From the NCBI GenBank assembly GCA_947474365.1, contig CANJIU010000009.1, positions 64,457 to 128,456 on the forward strand: 64,000 nucleotides of DNA. The letters are read 5' to 3'. Positions within the stretch are counted from its first letter, which is position 1. Each line of letters begins with the position of its first letter. Made by a program: the position numbers and the translations under genes. The notes below the pieces were generated by a model. The model did no database searches, was not told the origin of the DNA, and saw only the letters and a program-made list of their open reading frames with translations. This stretch comes from Opitutia bacterium. GTDB lineage: Bacteria; Verrucomicrobiota; Verrucomicrobiia; Opitutales; Opitutaceae. Shown piece by piece: positions 4,304 to 17,235 of the stretch.

Positions 4304-6403
4304 TCAGGGCATTTCATACAACTCGACCAAAGCGACGCCGGTCGTGTTTCCCACGCCGCTAACCTGTGCGGTGTAGGCGCCCGGGGCGAGGTTGATGATG
4401 AGTGCGGCATCCTGACTCCCCGCCGTCAGGGCAAACGCGCCCACTTGCGCGGAGCCACTCGTGATGGCCGCCGCATCGGGCGACCCACTCCACCCCGCAT
4501 TGCTTGCCAGCACGTTCGTCCCGGAACTCACGGTCAGCGTCGGCCGCGCGAGCGCACCCGTGACGCCGAATTGCGTCAATCCTGGGCCGGTACCGCGAAT
4601 GAGGACCCGTTTCGGCACGTTTCCCGTAATAAAAAAACCGGTGATGAGGGCGCCGTCGCCTGTGCCGGCCGTCGCACGGATCGCGGTATTGACGATCCGC
4701 TGATCGCGCGGAATTTCTCCGATGGTCGCATCATAGACCTCCACCATGCTGACACCGCTCACGCCACCCTGACCCGTGACCACTGCGGTGTAGGTCCCTG
4801 GCTCAAGGTCCAGCATGAGCGCCGCGTCGCGACTGTTATTCGCCAGAGGAAAGGCTCCAACCCGCGCGGCCGCCGCTGCGATTGCGGCAGAGGAAGCACC
4901 ACCCGCGGCGGGTGTGCCCCAATCATTGCCGACGGCCACGGACGTCGCGCCGCGGAAAACCTCCAAACGCGCGGCACTGAGCACGCCGCCAACTCCGAAC
5001 GTCGCAAGGGTCGGGCCGATCGCGCGCACGAGCACCGGCTTGGGCCGCGTCCCCGAAATGACAAAGCCTGCGATCAAAGTGTTCGCCGCCGTGCCCGTCA
5101 GGCTTCGCGTGGAGATGTTGATCAATTTGTCGAGATCCGAGCGGACATCACTGCTCCCCACAAAGGTCGCCGCCGCTCCGTTCGCCGGCGTCACGGTCGC
5201 TGAAAAAATCGACGTCGCGGCAGAAATCGTGCCCACCACGCGCGCATTTGCGGCCGTCGAGAGACTGACCACGCCGTCGGTGGAAACGGTGCCGACGCCA
5301 CCATCGGCCGTCGCACCCATAACGTTCACCAACAGAACCTCACCCTTGGCGCTCACGATCGCGTAGCCCTGCGCCGATCCGCCCACCATCCGCGTCGGAA
5401 AAAAGCCCGCCACCGCCGCCGTCACGCCGGTCCGGGCCGCAGCAGGTGCGATGAACGCGAGATTGATTCCGGAAACCGAGCCCTTGAGCGTGCCATCGGG
5501 CCCAATGCCTCCTTCGACGCGACCGCCGCCCTCGAGGTCCGCGGCAAATGAACCGTCGCCCGCCACCATGACGTCGCGACCGACGAGAGCCGTCCGCGTC
5601 GCATTCGCGAAACCCAGAAACACCCCGGTGCGATCTGTCCGAATGATGAGTGAGAAGGCGCCACCTTCGCTGCCAAAGGCACCAAAGTAAGTACCGTCAA
5701 TTGGAGCCGGACGGACGGTAAGCAACGCGGAGCTGGACGCAACGCTGCCGGCAACGTTGGTCACCACCACCTGATACGAACCAGAAACCGTGGCGTTCAC
5801 CACGTTGAGCGAGGCCGACGTGGCACCTGCAACGGCGATACCGTCCTTCTGCCATTGATACGACAGAGGTCCGGTACCAGAGGCGGCAACCGTCAACGTG
5901 GTCGACCCGCCGAAATCCACCGACTGCGCCACGGGCTGGGTCACAACGGCCGGAGCCTCGGGCTTGAAAACCGGCGTGACGGTCAGGACGGCAGTCGAAC
6001 TGGTCACCGAGCCATCGTTGTTCGAAATGGAAACCGTGTACGTCGCCGCATCGTTCTGCGCCGTTTTCTCCAGCGTGAGCGTCGGACTCTGCGCCCCCGC
6101 AATCACGGCCCCATTCTTGAACCACTGATAGAGGGGAAACTTGCCCGTCGCCGTAACCTCGAACGTCACACCGGCGCCTTCTACGACCGTGCGGCTGATC
6201 GGCTGCGCGGTGATTACCGGCGTTACCTGCGGTCCGCTACCATCGCCGCCACCCCGGCCATTGCCACCCCCCGAGCCGTTGCCTCCGTGACCACCCGCAC
6301 CACCGGAGACCGGAACCGTCTGGGCACTCACCCCAAACGTGACCAAGAAAAGAAGAGCGAGCCCACGGAAGAGGCGCCAAGGGGACGACAACGTGGGTCT
6401 CAT
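4304..6403 (-). CDS. Secreted multi-domain protein: Gly-rich linker, two Ig-like (I-set-type) domains and two ~120-aa C-terminal tandem repeats
   Basis: Start chosen at MRPTLSSPWRLFRGLALLFLVTFGVSAQ (signal peptide), ATG at 6403. Gly-rich linker GGAGGHGGNGSGGGNGRGGGDGSG. Two Ig-like domains with YQW(Q/F)K(D/N)G motifs. Two diverged repeats, each ending ...PG(A/T)YTA.V(S/T)G..G.(T/S)GV.(L/M)VE(L/V)Y. The upstream part of the six-frame ORF (to 6889) overlaps an intergenic repeat and is rejected. Confidence 0.75.
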   Translation of the reverse strand: MRPTLSSPWRLFRGLALLFLVTFGVSAQTVPVSGGAGGHGGNGSGGGNGRGGGDGSGPQVTPVITAQPISRTVVEGAGVTFEVTATGKFPLYQWFKNGAVIAGAQSPTLTLEKTAQNDAATYTVSISNNDGSVTSSTAVLTVTPVFKPEAPAVVTQPVAQSVDFGGSTTLTVAASGTGPLSYQWQKDGIAVAGATSASLNVVNATVSGSYQVVVTNVAGSVASSSALLTVRPAPIDGTYFGAFGSEGGAFSLIIRTDRTGVFLGFANATRTALVGRDVMVAGDGSFAADLEGGGRVEGGIGPDGTLKGSVSGINLAFIAPAAARTGVTAAVAGFFPTRMVGGSAQGYAIVSAKGEVLLVNVMGATADGGVGTVSTDGVVSLSTAANARVVGTISAATSIFSATVTPANGAAATFVGSSDVRSDLDKLINISTRSLTGTAANTLIAGFVISGTRPKPVLVRAIGPTLATFGVGGVLSAARLEVFRGATSVAVGNDWGTPAAGGASSAAIAAAAARVGAFPLANNSRDAALMLDLEPGTYTAVVTGQGGVSGVSMVEVYDATIGEIPRDQRIVNTAIRATAGTGDGALITGFFITGNVPKRVLIRGTGPGLTQFGVTGALARPTLTVSSGTNVLASNAGWSGSPDAAAITSGSAQVGAFALTAGSQDAALIINLAPGAYTAQVSGVGNTTGVALVELYEMP

Positions 6404-6500
6404 GAACGGAACAGGAGCATCGCGGGACGTTAAAACCGATTTATCCGAGGTCAAGGGAGGCCCCCTGCTGTCGTCTTTCTCCCTAATCCGTAGAAATTCA

Positions 6501-6640
6501 GTCGAGAGCGGAGAGCCGGGAGCTGAGAGCAAAACCAAACGGTGAACTTCGGTTTCGGGTCGGGCGGCGCGCGTGTCTGGTCTCGAGATTGGGCTCTCAG
6601 CTCTTCGCTCCGAGCTCTCGACTGCATGGTCGCGGCTAAT
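6501..6640. repeat. R1 copy 1 plus an imperfect inverted-repeat partner (gtcgagagc..agctgagagc / gctctcagct..gctctcgac), forming a long hairpin between the SGNH hydrolase stop and the Ig-like protein start
   Basis: Read directly from the sequence. Arms at 6501-6530 and 6593-6622. Confidence 0.65.
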
Positions 6641-7418
6641 CCGCCAGCCACCGCGCCAGCGGCAATTGCAGCCGCCGGATTTCCTGCGCTGCGAGTCTCG
6701 CAACCTGCCTAGCCCCGAACTCGCAATAATGGGTATTGTCCGCCGCACCTTTCGGATAGGCGTCATACTTGCCGGCCGGCAAATACAGGTGAAGCGCCTT
6801 GGAACCCTCCGGGCCGAGCGTGCACTCCAATTCCTCGGTCCGGGCGCGCAGATCAAGCAGCGGCACGTCCATCGCCGCAGCGACTTCACGGGTCACGTCC
6901 TGCCATTCGGACGGCGCGACCTCAAACCGGCCCGCCTCGCTCCAGCTTCGCCGCACGACAGAAGTGGCCAGCAGCGGAAACGCACCCTTGGCCCGCACTT
7001 CACGGATGAACCGCTCGAGATTCGCGCGATACGAACCACGAGGTTCGGTGTAACGTGAGGGATCATCCACCTTCGTGTCGTTCGTGCCGAACTGGATGAT
7101 CAGATAATCACCTTTGGCGATCTCGCCGATCACTTTGGCCCAAAGCCCCTGGTCGATGAAACTCTTGCTGCTCCGGCCGCTGCGTCCGTGGTTTTGTACC
7201 ATCGTCGCGTCCTTGAAATGCGCCGGGAACACTTGCCCCCATCCCACCAGGACGCGTTCCGGCGGATAGCTCGCCATCGTCGAGCCCCCAATCAGAAAAA
7301 CGCGCGGCGGCAATTCGACCGCGGCCATCCCGATCGTCGGAAACGCCCAAATACAAGCGACGCCTGCAAGCAGTCTCGCGAGCCATAGCCTGCGCAGGAA
7401 ATTAAGCGGGCGAGTCAT
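6636..7418 (-). CDS. SGNH/GDSL hydrolase, rhamnogalacturonan acetylesterase-like (CE12-like)
   Basis: N-terminal signal peptide. FLIGGSTMASY...GWGQVF aligns with the RGAE block YLAGDSTMA...GWGEYL. Length 260 aa. Confidence 0.8.
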   Translation of the reverse strand: MTRPLNFLRRLWLARLLAGVACIWAFPTIGMAAVELPPRVFLIGGSTMASYPPERVLVGWGQVFPAHFKDATMVQNHGRSGRSSKSFIDQGLWAKVIGEIAKGDYLIIQFGTNDTKVDDPSRYTEPRGSYRANLERFIREVRAKGAFPLLATSVVRRSWSEAGRFEVAPSEWQDVTREVAAAMDVPLLDLRARTEELECTLGPEGSKALHLYLPAGKYDAYPKGAADNTHYCEFGARQVARLAAQEIRRLQLPLARWLAD

Positions 7419-7440: not shown

Positions 7441-10400
7441 TCAACGCGCCGAGGCGGGAATCAACCGGATTCCACGTACGTCGGCGAGTTCCCGTTTCAA
7501 GGGCCCATCCGGCTTCAGCTGAATGCGGTTCACGCCGCTGCGCAACACGAGCCGGCCGGAGGGTTGCTCGCGAAACGTCTCGTAGTCGCCCGTCGACGGC
7601 ACCTCGCCCCGCGTCCGGCTTCCCTCGGTTTCCACCACGAAGAAATCGCCTGCCGAATCATCGTCCGCCGCGAGATTCACGCGCACCTCGAAGGTTCCAC
7701 CGGACTCAAGCTCCACCGTCCACTCCGCGATGTCGGTGGCGACTGTCCAGGGAGCCAGCACGTCAAACACCTGCCGGTAGCCGAGCTTTTGCGCGTAGAC
7801 CACCGCCTTGCCGGCGGGAAGCAGAATCTCCCCCGACGGTATCGGCCGAAGCACGACAGCGGGGCCGGCGCCAGTTCCCTCTTTCTGGCCCGGAACGGCC
7901 GTGAGTTCCCCCGCGGTCCAGGGCAAGGTGCGGCCGCCGGTTTCGCGCCGGATGCCCGCAATCAACTGCGGCTCGACCACGCCCGCATCGTTCCCCCAGG
8001 CACGCCGGACATAACTGATGACCGCCGCCATCTTGTCGTCGTCGAGTATCCCGCTGGCGCCGAGGGCGGGCATGCTCAGATTCCACGTCTGTCCGCCGAC
8101 CGAAATGGGGCCGTACAGGCCGTGCATCACGATACGAGCGACCCGCTCGACGGGCCCCTTGACCCACTCGCTCGCGGCCAGTGAGGGCGCCACATTGGGA
8201 GCACCGCCACCGTGCCCCTGATGACAGGCAGAACAAATCGCGGTGTAGATTTCACGTCCCTCCTCCACGCGTTTCCTTTCCAGCGCGGAGAGCACCCGGG
8301 CTCCGGTATCCGCACTCGTCTCCGCGACCGCTCCCGGCCACGCAAACACCTCCAAGGCACGGTAGGCGACCTGGCGGAGCGAAGCGTCCGAGCCCCGCGC
8401 GAGGCGGAGCAGTACCGCCGGCTCCCGGGTTAGAGGCGCAGGCTTGACGCGTCGGCTCCCGGTTGGCGCGAACGTGGTCAGCGCCTCCAGCAATGCCTCG
8501 TGGTGCCAGGGCGCGGAACGTCCCGCCGTTTCCAACAGGGCGATCAGGGCGTCGTTGCGCGGCGCATCTCCGGCCTCCAGCACGCAGTGCACGGCCAGAC
8601 TGGCGATCCGCCGCTGCCGTGCGCCGAAGGTTGACTGATCGGCAAACGTGCGGAGGAGCGCCTGGAGAAATTCCAGCTCGCGCCCTTCCCTCCCCGACAG
8701 CGCAGCGACATCGAAGAGCGTATCCTCGCCGGCAATCGCCAGCGCCAACAGCAACGGCAGCGACTCCGGCAGCACCATCGCACTCGCCGTCAGCGTCGCC
8801 TGCAACCGGACGGACTCACTCCGATCCCGCCGGGCGGCGCCCAGTTTCGCGAGCAGGGTGGATTGTTCCGTTGCCGCAAGTCCTCGTTCACTCAGACGGA
8901 TCGCGGCTGCACGCACGCGATCATCGCCATCGCCCATCGCGGCGAATTTTGTCGCGGGGTCGAGGGCGCCGAGGCCGTCGAGAGCCCACAGGGCGTGCAA
9001 CCGCCCGAGCGGCGCGGAACCACGGCGTGCCTGTTCCCGCAATGGCGGCACCGCGCTGGGATCGCGCCGTTCCACCAGCAGGCGCTGCGCCGTCAGCCGC
9101 CACCAGCCCGTGGCGTCGCCGAGATGGGTGATCAACTCCGAGGAGCCGGCCTGATCGAGCCTGGGGCGGCCCCGTTCCACCGGGCGATCGTCACGCACGA
9201 CGCGGTAGAGGCGGCCCATGTCCCTGCCGGTATCAAGCTTTCGATCACGCACCTGATCGCTGATCCACGGCACCATGAAAATTACGTGCTCGATGATCCC
9301 GTGGTACATGTCGGCGACGTAGAGCGCCCCGTCGGGACCGACGCGCGCGTTGACAGGCCGGAAGCGTTCGTCGCTCGACGCCAGAAATTCCTGCTCGGCC
9401 GGATAAAAGCGCGTCGCATTCGGCCGGATGCCGCCGCTAAGCCGCAACCGGCCGATGAGATTGCCCCCGGCCTCGGGGACGAACACATTGCCCCGAGCCT
9501 CCTCGCCCAGCTGCTCTCCGTCGTAGTAACACGTGCCGGATGCGATGGTGTAGGTCTGCAGGCGGGCGTCGTCCCGCAGTTCCAAGGCACCGAGCGTGAT
9601 CCCCGGCGTCACGCGGATCGGAAAGACCTCCTGCGCCTCAGTGGCGATGTTCACGCTCACGCCCCCGGAACCGCGGCCACCGCGCGCCACAACCCGCGCG
9701 AGGTTGTGATTGCGCACCAGATACTCCGCCGGAATCAAATCGGCGTGCAGCGCTGAGTTCTGGTGGCAGGTCATGAACCGCCCCGTCTCGTCAAACGTGA
9801 CACCGAATTGCCCATGGCGAACCGTCTCCTCCTCGATGAATTTCCCCTCGAGCCAGCGGTGCCGTTTCGTCGAATCGGCACTGTGCAGCCAGTTGTCGAT
9901 GCCGTAGCGAAGCCCGTTCGCGGTGTGCTGCGGATTGCCCGCAACCCCCATCGTCCCCACCTCGGTGCGTCGATCACAGCGCAGGTCGCCGTCGGTGTCC
10001 TCACAAAACCAGACCTTGGGTGGCTCCTGCACCAGCACGCCTCCCTTCACAAAGGTGAGCGACCGTGGCATCACCAGCCGGTCGAGGAAAACCGTGCTCT
10101 TGTCAGCGCGGCCATCGCCATCGGTATCCTCCAGCACCACGACGCGGCAGATCGGATCGCCCTCGCCGCCACCCTTGATGTCGCGCATGTAGCCCTGGTA
10201 CTCGACGACCCAGATGCGGCCCGCCGGGTCAAATTCAAAGAAAATCGGATTCTGCACCATTGGCTCGGCCGCCACGAGTTCGACCCGATAGCCCGGCGCC
10301 ACCCGGAAACTGCGCAACGCCTCCTCCGGCGAAAGCGGCGGCGCCGGCGGCACCTTGATGCGCGAGAGGAGATCGGCGCCCTTTTCCCATTGCGCCGTTC

Positions 10401-10533
10401 CGGTCAGCATCGAGGGCGGCCGCGCCCGTGGGCGCTCGGGTGGCACCGACTGCGCTCGCGCGGGCCAACCCGCGGCGGCGAGACATAGCCCCGCGAGGAC
10501 GCAATACTCCGGCAAGAAACCGCGGCGCGTCAT
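7441..10533 (-). CDS. PVC-type membrane-bound dehydrogenase domain protein fused to HEAT repeats and a cytochrome c (CxxCH) heme-binding domain
   Basis: 1030 aa. Signal peptide MTRRGFLPEYCVLAGLCLAAAGWPARA. N-terminal soluble quinoprotein/sorbosone-dehydrogenase-like beta-propeller region. HEAT-like helical repeats. CSACHQGHGGG cytochrome c motif near the C-terminus. The architecture matches the Pirellula/Verrucomicrobium-type heme-binding and membrane-bound dehydrogenase families. Confidence 0.8.
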   Translation of the reverse strand: MTRRGFLPEYCVLAGLCLAAAGWPARAQSVPPERPRARPPSMLTGTAQWEKGADLLSRIKVPPAPPLSPEEALRSFRVAPGYRVELVAAEPMVQNPIFFEFDPAGRIWVVEYQGYMRDIKGGGEGDPICRVVVLEDTDGDGRADKSTVFLDRLVMPRSLTFVKGGVLVQEPPKVWFCEDTDGDLRCDRRTEVGTMGVAGNPQHTANGLRYGIDNWLHSADSTKRHRWLEGKFIEEETVRHGQFGVTFDETGRFMTCHQNSALHADLIPAEYLVRNHNLARVVARGGRGSGGVSVNIATEAQEVFPIRVTPGITLGALELRDDARLQTYTIASGTCYYDGEQLGEEARGNVFVPEAGGNLIGRLRLSGGIRPNATRFYPAEQEFLASSDERFRPVNARVGPDGALYVADMYHGIIEHVIFMVPWISDQVRDRKLDTGRDMGRLYRVVRDDRPVERGRPRLDQAGSSELITHLGDATGWWRLTAQRLLVERRDPSAVPPLREQARRGSAPLGRLHALWALDGLGALDPATKFAAMGDGDDRVRAAAIRLSERGLAATEQSTLLAKLGAARRDRSESVRLQATLTASAMVLPESLPLLLALAIAGEDTLFDVAALSGREGRELEFLQALLRTFADQSTFGARQRRIASLAVHCVLEAGDAPRNDALIALLETAGRSAPWHHEALLEALTTFAPTGSRRVKPAPLTREPAVLLRLARGSDASLRQVAYRALEVFAWPGAVAETSADTGARVLSALERKRVEEGREIYTAICSACHQGHGGGAPNVAPSLAASEWVKGPVERVARIVMHGLYGPISVGGQTWNLSMPALGASGILDDDKMAAVISYVRRAWGNDAGVVEPQLIAGIRRETGGRTLPWTAGELTAVPGQKEGTGAGPAVVLRPIPSGEILLPAGKAVVYAQKLGYRQVFDVLAPWTVATDIAEWTVELESGGTFEVRVNLAADDDSAGDFFVVETEGSRTRGEVPSTGDYETFREQPSGRLVLRSGVNRIQLKPDGPLKRELADVRGIRLIPASAR

Positions 10534-10540
10534 AGCTCAC

Positions 10541-13513
10541 TCAAAACCGCGCCTGGATGCCGGTCGAAATCGAGCGGGGGAACAGATTCGTCTGCGCACG
10601 GCGGTCCGCGCGATAGAGGCCCAGATATCGGCCGCGGTTCTCCTCGAAGAGATTAATCACGTCCATGAAGACATTGAGGTTTCTCGAAATCTTGAAGCGG
10701 GTGAAGAAATCGAATTGCTGGCGCTGCCCGACAAACTCCGAACTTGAGGGATCCGCGACGTTGAGCGTGAAGAGATGCGTCGAGGAAAAGTTCCACATCA
10801 GGCGCAGATCCCAGCGGCCGTAATTGTAGCTCACGCCGGCGTTGCCGGAGCGCGGGCGCATCTGGGTGAGGTAGTTCTTGAACGGCAGGTTGGTGACGAC
10901 GCCGTTGTAGTCGCCGGCGCTCGTAAGCACGGTCCAGTTGCCGGTCACGCCGAGGCCGCGCAGCAGCCCAGGGAGAAAGCTCAATTGCTGCGCGTAATTG
11001 AACTCCAGGCCCTGCACCGTGCCGTCGCCGGCGTTGACGCGGGTGTTCCCGGTCCAGCCCGCGTACGGGCTCAGGTCGAGGCCGAACTCGTTCCCGACAA
11101 TCTTGAACGAAGTGGCGGTGACGTAGTTCTTGATCTCCTTGCGAAACGCGCCGAGCGACACGACACCCACGGGCTTGAAGTAATATTCCACGCTCAGGTC
11201 GTAGTTGCTCGAGATCTGCGGTTTCAGCGCCGGATTGGAAAACGTGACCGCCTGGCCGAGGTCGTTGACCGAGAAACGCCCCACCAGATCAGAGAGCCGC
11301 GGCCGGCCGATCGTCGTGGAATAGTTGGCGCGGAACGTGAGATGCGCGACCGGCTCGTAGCGAAACTGGAGGTTGGGGAAAAAGTAGCCCTCGTCCGCCT
11401 CGACGGTCTTGAAGGTGGAGAAGCGAGCCTCGGGCGCGGTCACGCGAGTGTTTTCAAAGTAGGAGGTGAGCCGCGCCTGCGTCAGTTCATAGCGCAGTCC
11501 GGCGGTCATCTGGAGATTTTGCAGCCAGCGCACTTCACTTTGCAGGTAGCCGGCAGGGATGGTTTCCCGGGTGCGATAGTCGTTCTGCAGCGAGTTCGTC
11601 ACTGAGGTGTCGAGGTTCGCCGTGGTGGCGGGAAAATACGGAGCGTTGTAGGCAAACTGCACGGCGGGTCGCGCCGGGTTGCCGGACGGCAGATAACGGA
11701 TACCCGAATCCTTGAAGATCGCCTTGGTGTTGATCAGGGGTGTCGCCGGGTAGTGCCCGTCGACCCAGCCGTAGGTAAAGCTGGCGTCGCGGTATTGCGG
11801 GTAGCTGCCGGCCCCAAAGGTGCCGGTGATGGAGTCGGCGTCCCGGTCGCGATCCTCCTGCCGGATGCGGAAGCCCGTCTTGAATTTCACGGGAAACTTC
11901 CATTGGGCGAAATCCTTCGTCACATCGAGCTTGGCGCTCTTGATTTTGTCACTCGCATCCTCGTGGGTCCCGGTGAGCGCAATCGACAGCATGTTCGTGA
12001 ACTGATCCGCCGGCGGAGGGACCGCGCCGCCAAACGTGAGCGTCGGAAACTCCTTGCTCGCGCGGCGGTCATACGTGAAGGAAAAGAAATTGTTGCTGCG
12101 GCCGGTCGCCGACATCCGGTCGAGCGGACGGAAGGAGTCGGAATACGACAGGTCCCACGCGATCTTCACGATGCCGAGGTTGTGTTTGCCGTTGAGCTGA
12201 AAGCCCCACGTGTCGCTCGGCGTGTAGCGGAAATCGCGCTGGGACCGGTAGCTCGCGCGGCTGAAGACCCAGTAGTCCGTGGTCGACTGGGCGGTGTCGA
12301 TGACGTTGTTGTCGGTGTACTGCGGGCGAACCTGCTCCATGACATTGCGGAAGCGGGTCCAGCCGGCGGCAAACGTGAGGGAGGAGTCGCCCGACAGGCG
12401 GTAATCGAGCTTGGTCTGCAGGTTGGCCCGCTTGTTCATGTGGTACTCCTGGTCGGCGTAGACCAGCTGGCGGCCCGCGGTGGGGCTCGTGTAATTCCAG
12501 TTGGTCGCGAAGGTCGTGCGGATCGTCTGCAACCCGTCACCGACCTCTTGATACGCGCCGGTGACCGACACGCCGAGCTTCCGCCCGAAGAGCAGGAACA
12601 CATCCGAATAATCGATCGAGAAATGAGGGAAGATCGTCTTCCCGCTGCCCGAGGGGTCAAGGTGCCGGCCCATCGTCTCGTTGTAGGCGGTGGCGGCGTT
12701 GAGGATGATGGTGCGCCCGGTGCGGTCGAAACCGCTTCGCGTGCGCAGATTGACCACCCCGCCGAGCGACTCCGCGTCCATGTCGGCCGTCGGGGTCTTG
12801 ATGACCTCGACGCTTTCGATGGAATTCGACGGGAGTCCGCTGACCACCTGGACGCGCGAGTCGGGATTGGCGGCGGCGAACCGCGTGCCGTCCATCGTGA
12901 CCGTCGTGAATTCAGGCGAGAGTCCGCGCACCATGATCGCGTCGACCGCGGAACCGCCGTACTCGCCGACGATGCCCGGCAGCCGCTGGAGGAAGGTGCC
13001 GAGGTCGCCCTTCGCGATGTTGCCGTAGGCGTCGGTCGAAATCGTGTTCCCCACCGTGAGCGCCTTTTCCTGCCGCGCGATCGCGGCCGCGTTGCCCTCG
13101 CGCACCGCGGTGACCGCAAACGACTCCATCTTGTAGACGTCGGAGGTGAGGTTGAAGTCCTGCACCGCCGTGGCACCGGAGCCAATCTCGACGACGCGCG
13201 TCATCGGATCGAGACCCGGGTAGACGACCCGCACGGTGAGCGATCCCGCGCCGAGCCCCCGGATCGCGAATGAGCCGTCGCGCTCCGTGGCTACACTGCG
13301 ACCGGCGCCCACGATTTCCACGCTGGCGTCCTCGAGCGACGCGCCGGTGGCCTGGTTGGAAACGCGGCCCTGCAGCACCGCGGTGCCCGCGGCCGCGGCG
13401 GTCGAAGCGCCCGAAGCCTTCGGTCCGGGCTCAGCCGCGGGAAGCAGCGAAGCGCCCAGCAGGGCGAAAAACAACGGCAGTACCAGGCGATGATGGGTCA
13501 GCGAAACGTTCAT
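10541..13513 (-). CDS. TonB-dependent receptor with N-terminal carboxypeptidase-regulatory-like domain
   Basis: 990 aa. Signal peptide. CarbopepD_reg-like N-terminus (VLQGRVSNQATGASLEDASVEIVGAGRSVATERDGSF). Plug and beta-barrel. C-terminal aromatic residue (…GIQARF). Its stop lies 8 bp upstream of the start of the next gene (7441..10533). Confidence 0.9.
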   Translation of the reverse strand: MNVSLTHHRLVLPLFFALLGASLLPAAEPGPKASGASTAAAAGTAVLQGRVSNQATGASLEDASVEIVGAGRSVATERDGSFAIRGLGAGSLTVRVVYPGLDPMTRVVEIGSGATAVQDFNLTSDVYKMESFAVTAVREGNAAAIARQEKALTVGNTISTDAYGNIAKGDLGTFLQRLPGIVGEYGGSAVDAIMVRGLSPEFTTVTMDGTRFAAANPDSRVQVVSGLPSNSIESVEVIKTPTADMDAESLGGVVNLRTRSGFDRTGRTIILNAATAYNETMGRHLDPSGSGKTIFPHFSIDYSDVFLLFGRKLGVSVTGAYQEVGDGLQTIRTTFATNWNYTSPTAGRQLVYADQEYHMNKRANLQTKLDYRLSGDSSLTFAAGWTRFRNVMEQVRPQYTDNNVIDTAQSTTDYWVFSRASYRSQRDFRYTPSDTWGFQLNGKHNLGIVKIAWDLSYSDSFRPLDRMSATGRSNNFFSFTYDRRASKEFPTLTFGGAVPPPADQFTNMLSIALTGTHEDASDKIKSAKLDVTKDFAQWKFPVKFKTGFRIRQEDRDRDADSITGTFGAGSYPQYRDASFTYGWVDGHYPATPLINTKAIFKDSGIRYLPSGNPARPAVQFAYNAPYFPATTANLDTSVTNSLQNDYRTRETIPAGYLQSEVRWLQNLQMTAGLRYELTQARLTSYFENTRVTAPEARFSTFKTVEADEGYFFPNLQFRYEPVAHLTFRANYSTTIGRPRLSDLVGRFSVNDLGQAVTFSNPALKPQISSNYDLSVEYYFKPVGVVSLGAFRKEIKNYVTATSFKIVGNEFGLDLSPYAGWTGNTRVNAGDGTVQGLEFNYAQQLSFLPGLLRGLGVTGNWTVLTSAGDYNGVVTNLPFKNYLTQMRPRSGNAGVSYNYGRWDLRLMWNFSSTHLFTLNVADPSSSEFVGQRQQFDFFTRFKISRNLNVFMDVINLFEENRGRYLGLYRADRRAQTNLFPRSISTGIQARF

Positions 13514-13736
13514 GACGAATGAGGGGTGGCGGAAATGACGAGTACGGAGATAGGATCAGATCTTCCGCCGCGGTACAATTCCGAGAAAATGTTTCCGGAG
13601 CGGCGGTGCCCGCGACCACCCGCCGCCTTGGACATCGTTCCACGCCAGGCGCGGAGCGATCGGCGGATGCGGCGGCCCGGGCAAGCGTCCGCGACATCAC
13701 GGCGACAGGGGCCGGGCTTTTTCTTCGAAACGGGCA

Positions 13737-13791
13737 TTGACAGCGACCGGATCCGAATTTCATAGATTATGTAATTACATAAACTATGAAA
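13737..13791 (+). promoter_or_regulatory. Divergent promoter/operator: TTGACA -35-like hexamer, then a 34-bp AT-rich near-perfect palindrome overlapping the TetR start codon
   Basis: TTGACA at 13737-13742. Palindrome tttcatagattatgtaattacataaactatgaaa (13758-13791). Arms are complementary at 16 of 17 positions around a perfect tatgtaa/ttacata core. It is very AT-rich in a ~67% GC background and sits between the divergent TBDR operon and the TetR gene. Confidence 0.6.
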
Positions 13792-14385
13792 CCAACGGCC
13801 GAGCGTCGGACGGAGAATCGGGAGGCAATCCTGGATGCGCTGGCCGAAATTGTCGTGGCCAAGGGAGGCCTCGATTTTTCGGTTCAGCAGGTCGCCGACC
13901 GCGCGGGCGTCACGCACCGCACCGTCTACAACCACTTTCCCACCCGCGAGGCCATGCGCGAGGCGCTTGCCGTGCACGTCGAAGAGCGGCTGAGCCGCAG
14001 CCATACCCCGCCGGATGCCGCGGGTATCACGCTGGACGGCCTGCCGCAGATCGCCGCCGATTCCTTCGCGATGTTCGAGACCAATTCTTCGCAGATTCGC
14101 GCCTACGTGGTGCTCATGCTCGCGAGCCGCGGTTTTGCCGGAGTGATGAAAAAGCGCTCCGCCGAAATCCGGAAGGCGATCGAATCGCACCCCGAGTTTG
14201 ACGCCCCGATCTCGCCCCACGCGGTCGCCTCGGCCGTGCGCATGTTTTTCTCGGCCACAGGCTGGCACCTCTTGACGGAGCTTTACGGCCTCTCACCGGC
14301 CGAGGCCTCCGCGACCGCCCGTTGGGCCGCTCAATCCATTCTCGACGCCGCCACGAAAAAAGGTCCGAGGCGCCGGAAAAAATAA
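13786..14385 (+). CDS. TetR/AcrR family transcriptional regulator
   Basis: N-terminal HTH (FSVQQVADRAGVTHRTVYNHFPTREAM). Length 199 aa. Confidence 0.85.
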   Translation: MKPTAERRTENREAILDALAEIVVAKGGLDFSVQQVADRAGVTHRTVYNHFPTREAMREALAVHVEERLSRSHTPPDAAGITLDGLPQIAADSFAMFETNSSQIRAYVVLMLASRGFAGVMKKRSAEIRKAIESHPEFDAPISPHAVASAVRMFFSATGWHLLTELYGLSPAEASATARWAAQSILDAATKKGPRRRKK

Positions 14386-14403
14386 CCATCCATCCCACTG
14401 CTC

Positions 14404-16788
14404 ATGCCCACGACCCTCCCCCACCCGACCGCAACGATCCTCCCACTCGACTCCACCTCCGATGCCGCCGTGTGCGGCCAAAAGGCAGCTACCCTCGCCC
14501 GGCTCAAAACCGCCGGCTTTCACATCCCGGACGGCTTTGTGATTCCCGTCGGCGCTGAACCTGACCTCGAACACCTGCGCACCGCGCTCAATCAGATCGG
14601 TGCGGCCGCCTGGGCCGTGCGCTCTTCGGGCGTCGCGGAGGATCTCGAGGGCGCTTCATTCGCCGGACAATACGAGAGCGTGCTCGGCGTGAAGACCGTC
14701 GAAGAAGTCGCAGCGGCCATCGCTCGCGTGCGGACGTCCGGCAAGGCCGCGCATGTCGCCTCCTACCGTGGCACGCGCGATGACAACGGCCCGGGCGGCG
14801 TGGCCGTATTGGTCCAACGCCTCGCGAATGCTCGCGTGGCGGGGATCGCGTTTTCCGCCAACCCGGTGACCGGCGACGACGAAGTCGTGATCGAAGCCGT
14901 GCGCGGACTCGGCGATCGTCTGGCGTCGGGCGAACGCGACGCCGATCGCTGGATCGACGGCAAGACGGTGCGGGCTGTCGCCGACACCGGCGTGCTCGAT
15001 ACGCTGACGGCACGGAAAATCGCCGATCTTGCCCGCAACGTGGCGGCCAAGCGCGGCGGTCCGCAGGACATCGAATGGGCGATCGAGGGCGACAAGCTCG
15101 TGCTGTTGCAGGCGCGACCGATCACCGGGCTGCCGCAGGCCCCGAAGATCGAAATTCCGCCGGGTCGCTGGATGAAGGACACCACGCACTGGTCGGCGCC
15201 AATGACCCCGGCGGGAGCGTCGATTCTGCTGCCCGCGATTGAGGCTGGCTTGGCGGAAGTGCTGCCCGAGTTTGGCTTCCCGCTCGAGCGGCTCGCGCTC
15301 CGAACGTTCGGCCATGAAGTCTACACGCAGGAGATCGAGGTCGGCGGAAAACACAACCCCGGCTCTCCCCCTCCATGGTGGGCGGGCGCAATTGCGTTTC
15401 GCCTCGTGCCGCCGCTGCGCCGGCTGGTCCAGAACGCCGCGAGCGCCCGGCAAAAATTTGAGAGCTACCCCCGGGCGTGGAGGGAATCCCGGCGAAACGA
15501 GTGGGACCAGAAGATTGTTGCTGAGAGCAAGGTCGTCCTCACCACGATGAACGATGACCAGGTGTTGGATCACCTGCGCCACCTCATCGACGACGTCGTG
15601 GTCGCCGGAGTATTGGTTCACTTCAAACTGATGGTGCCGGACATGGTCGCGGTGCACGAACTCGCCGAGTTCTGCGAACAAAAGCTCGGCTGGAAAACGG
15701 CGCAAACCCTTGAGTTGCTCGCCGGACTTTCGACAACCGTCACTCAGCCCGCCAACGAGCTGGCCGAAATCGCCGAGCGGGCGGGCGCACCGGCGGTCGC
15801 CCACGGACTGGACGCGATTCGCAAGACCAAGGCCGGTCCGCAACTCGACGCCTGGCTCGCCCGCTGGGGCCTCCGCGTGATCGATTGCGATCCGGGTTCA
15901 CCAACGATCGCGGAATTTCCGGCGCTGGTGCTCGGCCTGCTTCGTCAGCCGCGAATGTCGTCGGCCGCACAAGAAAAAACGCGCCAGGCGACCGTGGCCC
16001 GCGCCCGGGCTGGACTCGATGAAAGCAGTCGCGCGCAATTCGACACCGTGCTGCGTGTGGCCGAGCTCGTCCATCCCACGCGCGAGGAAAACGTCCTCTA
16101 CACGCAGAGCCTGCCGCTCGGGTTGGTGCGCCGCGTCTTGCTGGAAATCGGACGCCGGCTCGCCGCCACTGGACAGCTCCGCGCCGCGGAGGACGTGGTG
16201 TTTCTCGAAGTTTCCGAAATTCGCGACGCCATGAAACGAAAGCTCGCCGGCGAAACTGCCGCCGCGCGGGTGAGTCGTCGTCGCGCCGAGCGCGCCTGGG
16301 CGCGCGCCCATCCGGGTCCCGCCTACCACGGACCGGCTCCCGTCGCACCACCGTCCGCGCGCGGCCTGCCGGCTCCTCTCCAAAGAGTCATCAAGGCGTT
16401 TCTTTGGGACATGCGGCATGAGGAGACGGTGGCGCAGCCTCCAGAAGCGGACGGCACGCTGCTCGGTGTCGGCGCCTCACCCGGTCGCGTCACCGGACGC
16501 GTGCGGGTCATTCGTTATGAGTCGGAACTCGTCGATTTCCAGCGCGGCGAAATTCTGGTGTGCCCGAGCACGCATTCGAGTTGGTCGGTCGTCTTCGCGC
16601 AGGCGGCCGCCCTCGTGACGGATCACGGCGGCGCACTCTCCCACCCCTCGATCGTCGCGCGCGAATACGGCATTCCCGCCGTCGTCGGCTCCGGATGCGC
16701 CACGGCGAAACTGGTGACCGGCCAAACGATCACCGTCGACGGCACGACTGGCCGCGTGGAGCCAGGCCCACGGGGGTCACATCGTTAG
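14404..16788 (+). CDS. PEP-utilizing enzyme family protein (PPDK_N ATP-grasp plus C-terminal mobile His domain), with rifampin-phosphotransferase / PEP-synthase-like architecture
   Basis: 794 aa. N-terminal ATP-binding region. C-terminal phospho-histidine swivel domain (DHGGALSHPSIVAREYGIPAVVG). Lies immediately downstream of the TetR gene. Confidence 0.8.
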   Translation: MPTTLPHPTATILPLDSTSDAAVCGQKAATLARLKTAGFHIPDGFVIPVGAEPDLEHLRTALNQIGAAAWAVRSSGVAEDLEGASFAGQYESVLGVKTVEEVAAAIARVRTSGKAAHVASYRGTRDDNGPGGVAVLVQRLANARVAGIAFSANPVTGDDEVVIEAVRGLGDRLASGERDADRWIDGKTVRAVADTGVLDTLTARKIADLARNVAAKRGGPQDIEWAIEGDKLVLLQARPITGLPQAPKIEIPPGRWMKDTTHWSAPMTPAGASILLPAIEAGLAEVLPEFGFPLERLALRTFGHEVYTQEIEVGGKHNPGSPPPWWAGAIAFRLVPPLRRLVQNAASARQKFESYPRAWRESRRNEWDQKIVAESKVVLTTMNDDQVLDHLRHLIDDVVVAGVLVHFKLMVPDMVAVHELAEFCEQKLGWKTAQTLELLAGLSTTVTQPANELAEIAERAGAPAVAHGLDAIRKTKAGPQLDAWLARWGLRVIDCDPGSPTIAEFPALVLGLLRQPRMSSAAQEKTRQATVARARAGLDESSRAQFDTVLRVAELVHPTREENVLYTQSLPLGLVRRVLLEIGRRLAATGQLRAAEDVVFLEVSEIRDAMKRKLAGETAAARVSRRRAERAWARAHPGPAYHGPAPVAPPSARGLPAPLQRVIKAFLWDMRHEETVAQPPEADGTLLGVGASPGRVTGRVRVIRYESELVDFQRGEILVCPSTHSSWSVVFAQAAALVTDHGGALSHPSIVAREYGIPAVVGSGCATAKLVTGQTITVDGTTGRVEPGPRGSHR

Positions 16789-17149: not shown

Positions 17150-17235
17150 ACGGGCGAGACCGCCCTGCCGGCTCCATGCTATGTCTATGCTATGTCCATG
17201 CTGCGTCCCTTTATGGCGATTTCCGGCGACCAGCC
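17150..17235. repeat. R2 copy 1, in the 890-bp non-coding region upstream of glnD
   Basis: See 27050-27135. Confidence 0.75.

Follow-up and report, generated by a model that had tools for sequence, protein, structure and literature searches.

In transposon Tn10, the two palindromes tetO1 and tetO2 measure approximately 15 bp each, bind one TetR dimer each, and lie over promoter elements, which brings about autoregulation. They are 11 bp apart and are situated between the divergent genes tetR and tetA. QacR of Staphylococcus aureus binds IR1, an AT-rich palindrome downstream of the −35 hexamer, and the two bound dimers block transcription. IR1 is a single 28-bp element in which the dimer sites overlap, and it cannot be divided into sub-palindromes. 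Several members of the TetR family, including QacR, CprB, and Ms6564, place two dimers on a single operator. The rph genes of actinobacteria are controlled via the RAE element.

The closest functional analogue of the present locus that we found in the literature is AcuR from Rhodobacter sphaeroides. The acuR-acuI-dddL operon is a regulator-first TetR operon in which an inverted repeat overlaps the promoter (PMC3017554). The AcuR operator is one 8-n6-8 inverted repeat, TAATAGAC-n6-GTCTATTA, and the transcript is leaderless (PMC3017554). The characterized enzymes of the RPH/PigC/RedH/HpeHI group phosphorylate or activate small molecules (PMC12167813).

We analyzed a stretch of 64 kb of DNA (called the window here) in which a TetR-family gene is followed by a gene for an Rph/PigC-like enzyme. 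Two short palindromic sites, O1 and O2, are found at the start of the TetR gene. On the sequence comparisons described below, these are probably tandem TetR operators, and the two genes would form an autorepressed, ligand-inducible operon.

Putative operator sites at the TetR start codon

The preliminary description of this region reported a near-perfect, AT-rich palindrome overlapping the TetR start codon, with a TTGACA hexamer 15 nt upstream, and assigned it to positions 13737–13791. This interval spans the hexamer plus the palindrome; the palindrome proper (TTTCATAGATTATGTAATTACATAAACTATGAAA) begins at 13758. It is an ungapped inverted repeat with two arms of 17 nt (13758–13774 and 13775–13791), which are complementary at 16 of 17 positions (94%). 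Among the palindromes of the window with 17-nt arms it ranks first, the runner-up reaching 14/17. When the window was shuffled 200 times, the best palindrome of this kind did not exceed 15/17, and 16/17 was reached in none of the shuffles. The factual parts of the preliminary description proved correct. Of its 34 bases, 28 are A or T, the highest count of any 34-mer in the window (runner-up 23/34), which has a GC content of 64%. What had been called the most AT-rich spot in 10 kb therefore holds this rank, at the 34-mer scale, in the entire 64 kb. The overlap with the start codon and the spacing of the hexamer are both as described (Table 1). The ATG lies in the right arm and is the sole possible start of the 199-residue open reading frame, since an in-frame TAA is present at 13780–13782. 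The N-termini of homologous proteins agree with this start. No further copy of the palindrome arm, its core, or the 15-bp motif described below was found in the window.

Table 1. Positions of the features at the TetR/Rph-like locus, numbered from the first base of the window.
Feature	Position	Strand	Basis or remark
TTGACA, −35-like hexamer of the TetR/Rph-like operon	13737–13742	+	read from the sequence; TTGAC upstream of O1 in 36/36 loci
34-bp near-perfect palindrome (O1, 2-nt gap, O2)	13758–13791	none	inverted-repeat search and shuffles
Putative operator O1, TTCATA-GAT-TATGTA	13759–13773	none	one mismatch to the family consensus TKCATANNNTATGMA; homologous site in 36/36 loci
Putative operator O2, TACATA-AAC-TATGAA	13776–13790	none	right half-site holds the ATG (13786–13788)
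TetR-family regulator gene (199 aa), presumed binder of O1/O2	13786–14385	+	Pfam and predicted fold
Rph/PigC-like PEP-utilizer enzyme gene (794 aa), presumed regulated cargo	14404–16788	+	18 nt downstream of the TetR gene

The palindrome was compared across 36 non-redundant homologous loci with a TetR identity of 40–95%, from Acidobacteriota/Vicinamibacterales and some other metagenome-assembled genomes (MAGs). The set comprises 15 loci from named MAGs (41–47% identity; mostly Vicinamibacterales/Acidobacteriota, with a Polyangiaceae MAG and a 10-Mb ‘Marinacidobacterales’ chromosome), the loci of ten proteins at 51–95% identity, and 11 more loci retrieved by a scan with the DNA pattern. The exact TetR protein of the window is present on 17 metagenome contigs, which are uninformative because their upstream region is identical. 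All 36 loci follow a common plan: TTGAC(A), 8–17 nt, O1, a gap, and O2, which ends in T-ATG-AA. This end consists of the TetR start codon followed by the opening two bases of codon 2. Both sites fit the 15-bp consensus T[T/G]CATA-N3-TATG[A/C]A (TKCATA-N3-TATGMA). Ten of the twelve half-site positions (site positions 1, 3–6, 10–13, and 15) are invariant or deviate in at most 2 of the 36 loci, while the three central bases of each site and the gap between O1 and O2 vary freely. Such a pattern, with half-sites conserved but spacers and gap variable, is predicted for the binding site of a dimeric protein. The geometry had been proposed to be that of TetR autoregulation. The same arrangement recurs at every homologous TetR start that we examined, as autoregulation predicts.

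The gap between O1 and O2 separates the loci into two groups. It measures 1–2 nt in 12 loci, namely the window itself (2 nt) and those that share at least 50% TetR identity with it, and 5–6 nt in the 24 more distant loci, which shows O1 and O2 to be separable units. The earlier proposal of a single 34-bp operator with the half-site ‘tatgtaa’ does not stand in this light. There are instead two 15-bp sites with the half-site T[T/G]CATA, and they read together as one 34-bp palindrome because they lie 2 nt apart on the same symmetric consensus. As judged from these loci, only one clade shows the ‘34-bp palindrome’ as such. It is unlikely that the 34 bp are nevertheless one long operator, recognized as a unit by paired TetR dimers in the manner of QacR on IR1. 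The close spacing in the window clade would fit such a unit, as would the symmetric inner half-sites of the window (TATGTA-AT-TACATA), which give a perfect 16-bp core, and the binding of two dimers to one operator has precedents in the family. However, this inner half-site variant is not seen in other members of the clade (L026 and L028 read TATGAA/TTCATA), and each of the sites that stand 5–6 nt apart in 24/36 loci is a complete palindrome. One indivisible palindrome of approximately 28 bp, as in the QacR type, is not what we observe. The sites match the tandem type, with two separable palindromes of shared consensus in the promoter region. Their centers are 17 bp apart in the window clade and 20 bp apart in the other clades. 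Two dimers would thus be placed on different faces of the helix, and a single common cooperative arrangement is not obvious.

The operator half-site is also visible in the proteins. Among 120 homologous proteins, 107 have MK or MN at the N-terminus, which is what ATG-AA-N demands; we read these starts as the protein-level imprint of the putative half-site TATGAA. In a search of 213 kb (the window plus the loci) that allowed up to two mismatches, the 15-bp motif occurred almost only as the O1/O2 pair, the exceptions being one weak single match and a second pair in locus L012. On this count, the candidate operator motif is specific to the position at the TetR start.

The hexamer occupies −49 to −44 relative to the TetR ATG (−44 to −39 in one clade). 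This position predicts a transcription start approximately 9–14 nt upstream of the ATG and thus a short leader. O1 would coincide with the expected −10 element and transcription start. Strict and relaxed scans of both strands of the intergenic region returned no full sigma-70 promoter, and the window has no canonical −10 hexamer 16–19 nt from TTGACA. The best TAnnnT in the window is TAGATT, which is located inside O1, 20 nt from TTGACA. The exact promoter geometry is uncertain for this reason. In the clade with the 5-nt gap, TAGTCT is found 18 nt from TTGACA. The TetR gene has no Shine–Dalgarno sequence, which is nothing special here, as only 2 of 26 large high-GC3 open reading frames (≥300 aa) in the window carry a Shine–Dalgarno-like 4-mer within 20 nt of the first ATG (a rough count with uncurated starts). 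The organism seems to depend little on Shine–Dalgarno-led initiation. In locus L026 (2262–2315), a GreA/GreB-like gene in the same orientation stops 14 nt short of the TetR ATG, and its 3′ end contains both TTGACA and O1.

The regulator and the Rph-like enzyme

Residues 15–61 of the regulator match the Pfam family TetR_N (PF00440) with 38.1 bits against a cut-off of 24. An AlphaFold2 model consists of ten helices (pLDDT 86) and shows the all-helical fold of the TetR type. Using Foldseek, we found that the top matches in the PDB are all TetR-family regulators (NalD, HapR/SmcR, TM1030, KstR, and Ms6564) with a TM score of about 0.6. Sequence and fold searches of the PDB yielded no close characterized TetR protein with a known operator; identity to the nearest matches does not exceed 22%. 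The relation to TetR(D) is distant (E about 1e-3). The recognition region GVTHRTVYNHFPTR is invariant in 40 homologues with the exception of G41, V47, H50, F51, and T53, and these five residues are conserved in at least 90% of them. A near-invariant recognition region matches the near-invariant CATA/TATG cores of the sites.

The 794-residue enzyme consists of a PPDK_N domain (residues 58–192) and a PEP-utilizers domain (712–783) according to Pfam, with a weak match to Rph_4th. The C-terminal His domain contains the motif GGALSHPSIVAREYG (GGALSH). This domain aligns to the C-terminus of the RPH structures 5fbs and 5hv1, but to the middle of PEP synthase chains. The enzyme is without the PEP/pyruvate TIM barrel and shows the domain order of Rph, namely ATP-grasp, substrate-binding, and a C-terminal swiveling His domain. 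It does not qualify as an Rph equivalog, with 188 bits against a cut-off of 999 for NF041857 and 135 against 1700 for NF000283. All NCBIfam matches (PEP synthase, RedH, PigC, and Rph) are far under their cut-offs; PigC, for example, scores 209 against 1300. The low scores and the RPH-like placement of the His domain identify the protein as an uncharacterized member of the Rph/PigC-like group.

Wherever a locus reaches far enough, the gene immediately after the TetR homologue is an Rph-like homologue. The distance ranges from −20 to about +90 nt, and in L034 and L035 the gene overlaps the TetR stop codon. This is a regulator-first arrangement, in which the regulator leads the predicted operon and the presumed regulated gene follows close behind. 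Two genomes contain two paralogous TetR/Rph-like modules each, one with L018 and L023 (OZ253507.1, 4.52–4.56 Mb) and the other, the MAG SMAG_U13667, with L012 and L014. Each module has its own pair of putative operators with an almost identical consensus, and cross-regulation between the paralogous modules is possible.

In locus L157 (3905–3936), which has 95% protein identity to the window, O2 reads TACATAAACTATAAA, which gives ATA as the TetR start codon. The Rph-like gene of this locus (4550–6934) is called as two pieces of 69 and 723 residues. The cause is either decay of the cassette in that strain or errors in the assembly. In the window, the gap of 610 bp between the Rph-like and GlnD genes contains a tandem repeat of about three copies of C[C/T]ATGCTATGT (17163–17195). 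The repeat does not match the operator motif.

The divergent operon and other explanations

A unit on the minus strand (7441–13513) encodes a TonB-dependent receptor, which carries a CarboxypepD_reg domain at its N-terminus, and then a PVC-type haem-binding protein of 1030 residues with DUF7133, HEAT, and cytochrome c domains. The pairing of a TonB receptor with a DUF7133/cytochrome c protein is typical of Acidobacteriota and PVC bacteria. The receptor gene starts at 13513 and shares an intergenic region of 272 bp with the TetR unit. The palindrome had been placed 240 bp from this start, close to the measured 245 bp, and had been thought to act on the divergent operon as well. That second target is probably wrong, and we consider it improbable that the O1/O2 pair also represses the receptor/DUF7133-cytochrome c operon. 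The divergent orientation over a common intergenic region would allow it, and the linkage is retained in the relative with 95% protein identity (L157). Beyond the window lineage and this relative, however, a receptor or DUF7133 homologue is found upstream of the TetR gene in none of the 15 named-genome loci and none of the 8 metagenome loci. The upstream neighbors there are GreA-like, PadR/MacB, glyoxalase, glutaredoxin/MauE, and TIR genes. In L157, 71 bp from the middle of the intergenic region (13600–13670 of the window) are missing, whereas both ends are conserved, which suggests two independent promoter regions. The receptor start is also far from O1 and has no operator copy of its own. 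An arrangement of the tetO type, with operators between a divergent regulator and its target and controlling both, is not what we found, since the conserved target is co-directional.

Locus L012 from the Polyangiaceae MAG provides a case in which a divergent gene appears to be under similar control. It has a second operator-like pair (1898–1932; TGCATGGTCCATGCA and TTCATACTATATGAA, centers 20 bp apart), which is located 23–57 bp before a divergent gene for a dihaem cytochrome c of 336 residues. This gene is a possible extra member of the regulon. It shows what a regulated divergent gene is predicted to look like, with its own pair of sites near its own start. This precedent could be taken in favor of shared control, but the window has no such pair by the receptor gene.

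It is very improbable that the palindrome acts in the mRNA instead, as a hairpin that hides the AUG for translational control or as an RNA thermometer. If fully transcribed, the 34 nt fold at −11.5 kcal mol−1 (z = −5.1) with the AUG paired. The position of TTGACA implies, however, that the transcript would begin at about 13766–13775, which would leave the left arm outside the RNA, and RNA from 13772 onward is unstructured at the AUG. The gap and the register also change between the clades. The spacers of O1 and O2 are complementary at 32 of 108 positions (25% is expected by chance) and do not covary. Complementarity this close to chance favors protein half-sites over a selected long hairpin. 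No Rfam match was found at 13758–13791; the sole match in 13300–14500 is at chance level (13598–13628, E = 0.32). We rejected the hairpin model, as the RNA folds well only with the left arm transcribed and the spacers lack covariation.

The scan of metagenomes with the dual-site pattern returned at least 80 loci, mostly chance matches in AT-rich DNA. Among the matches listed, 11 of the 16 in GC-rich contigs fall precisely on the start of a TetR homologue. The other GC-rich matches listed are a palindrome at a ParD-like antitoxin gene, microsatellite-like DNA, and one unexplained site. A second kind of regulon target was not present among the metagenome matches listed for this pattern. The ParD-side palindrome (L038, 3870–3898, and L092, 841–869) is the unrelated perfect palindrome CATATGGTATGAATAATTCATACCATATG, which closely precedes the antitoxin gene in a GC-rich contig. 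Its match to the pattern is due to chance or convergence. That the AT-rich palindrome of the window itself arose by chance, was left behind by a mobile element, or serves an unrelated DNA-binding protein is hardly credible: such patterns do arise by chance in AT-rich contigs and one precedes the antitoxin gene, but the GC-rich matches listed fall mostly on TetR starts, 36 loci with unrelated neighbors all keep it at a fixed position with respect to the ATG, and the shuffles never attained 16/17.

Proposed mechanism and comparison with known systems

The tandem-operator reading suggests the following mechanism. Going by what is known of the TetR family, each site would be occupied by one dimer. 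Downstream of TTGACA, the −10 and transcription start region would fall under O1, and the short leader without a Shine–Dalgarno sequence would fall under O2 together with the first codons. The bound repressor may then stop RNA polymerase from binding or from escaping the promoter. The bicistronic tetR/rph-like operon would be shut off in this state, which would amount to negative autoregulation with the regulator as the first gene. A small molecule would bind to the C-terminal domain of TetR and release it from the DNA, after which the Rph-like kinase and more repressor would be made; the substrate of the kinase itself is a plausible candidate for this ligand.

The TetR/Rph-like pair was seen in Acidobacteriota, in the Polyangiaceae MAG, and in other bins, sometimes with two copies per genome. 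A more tentative proposal is that the pair is a self-contained, horizontally spread cassette for an inducible phosphotransferase acting on a small molecule (possibly an antibiotic), with TetR as its dedicated sensor. In such a cassette, the promoter, both operators, and the translation start would be packed into about 55 bp, tightly enough for the operator to dictate the first two codons of the repressor throughout the family.

We found nothing specific in the literature on this TetR subfamily, on its motif, or on a TetR-regulated Rph-like gene. The element is well conserved and probably a switch of a familiar bacterial type, while the TetR subfamily itself is unstudied. The understanding of TetR regulation is unchanged by it, and the start codon inside an operator and the clade-specific spacing of 2 or 5 nt are minor curiosities. 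The analysis yields a concrete tandem operator motif, T[T/G]CATA-N3-TATG[A/C]A, for an uncharacterized TetR subfamily that is common in soil Acidobacteriota, and it ties this subfamily firmly to an uncharacterized clade of Rph/PigC-like kinases. The motif could improve the annotation of TetR/Rph-like operons in metagenomes. The repressor and its operator could be used as a biosensor for the kinase substrate, perhaps an antibiotic or a phenolic.

The enzyme resembles RPH, PigC/RedH, and HpeHI in its N-terminal ATP-grasp (PPDK_N) domain, its middle domain, and its C-terminal swiveling domain with the His motif. Control of its gene is presumed to be by TetR, in contrast to the RAE element of the actinobacterial rph genes. 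The regulatory region shares two separate palindromic sites of about 15 bp in the promoter region with tetO1/tetO2 of Tn10. Unlike in Tn10, the presumed target points the same way as the regulator, one of the two sites lies over the start codon, and only 2 nt (or 5 nt) separate them. A long AT-rich palindrome downstream of the −35 hexamer is also present in QacR IR1, but here it resolves into two distinct sites, which most members of the family keep 5 nt apart.

Among the systems that we found in the literature, AcuR is functionally the closest. In both systems, an inverted-repeat operator (putative here) overlaps the promoter, no more than a few tens of bp from the regulator ATG, the regulator gene has no Shine–Dalgarno sequence, and the arrangement is kept in homologous operons of other taxa. 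Where AcuR has a single 8-n6-8 repeat, there are two putative 6-n3-6 sites here, the second of which includes the start codon. The acuR transcript is leaderless, whereas the −35 hexamer 43 nt before the ATG predicts a short leader of about 10–14 nt for the present operon, and the cargo is an Rph-like gene in place of acuI-dddL.
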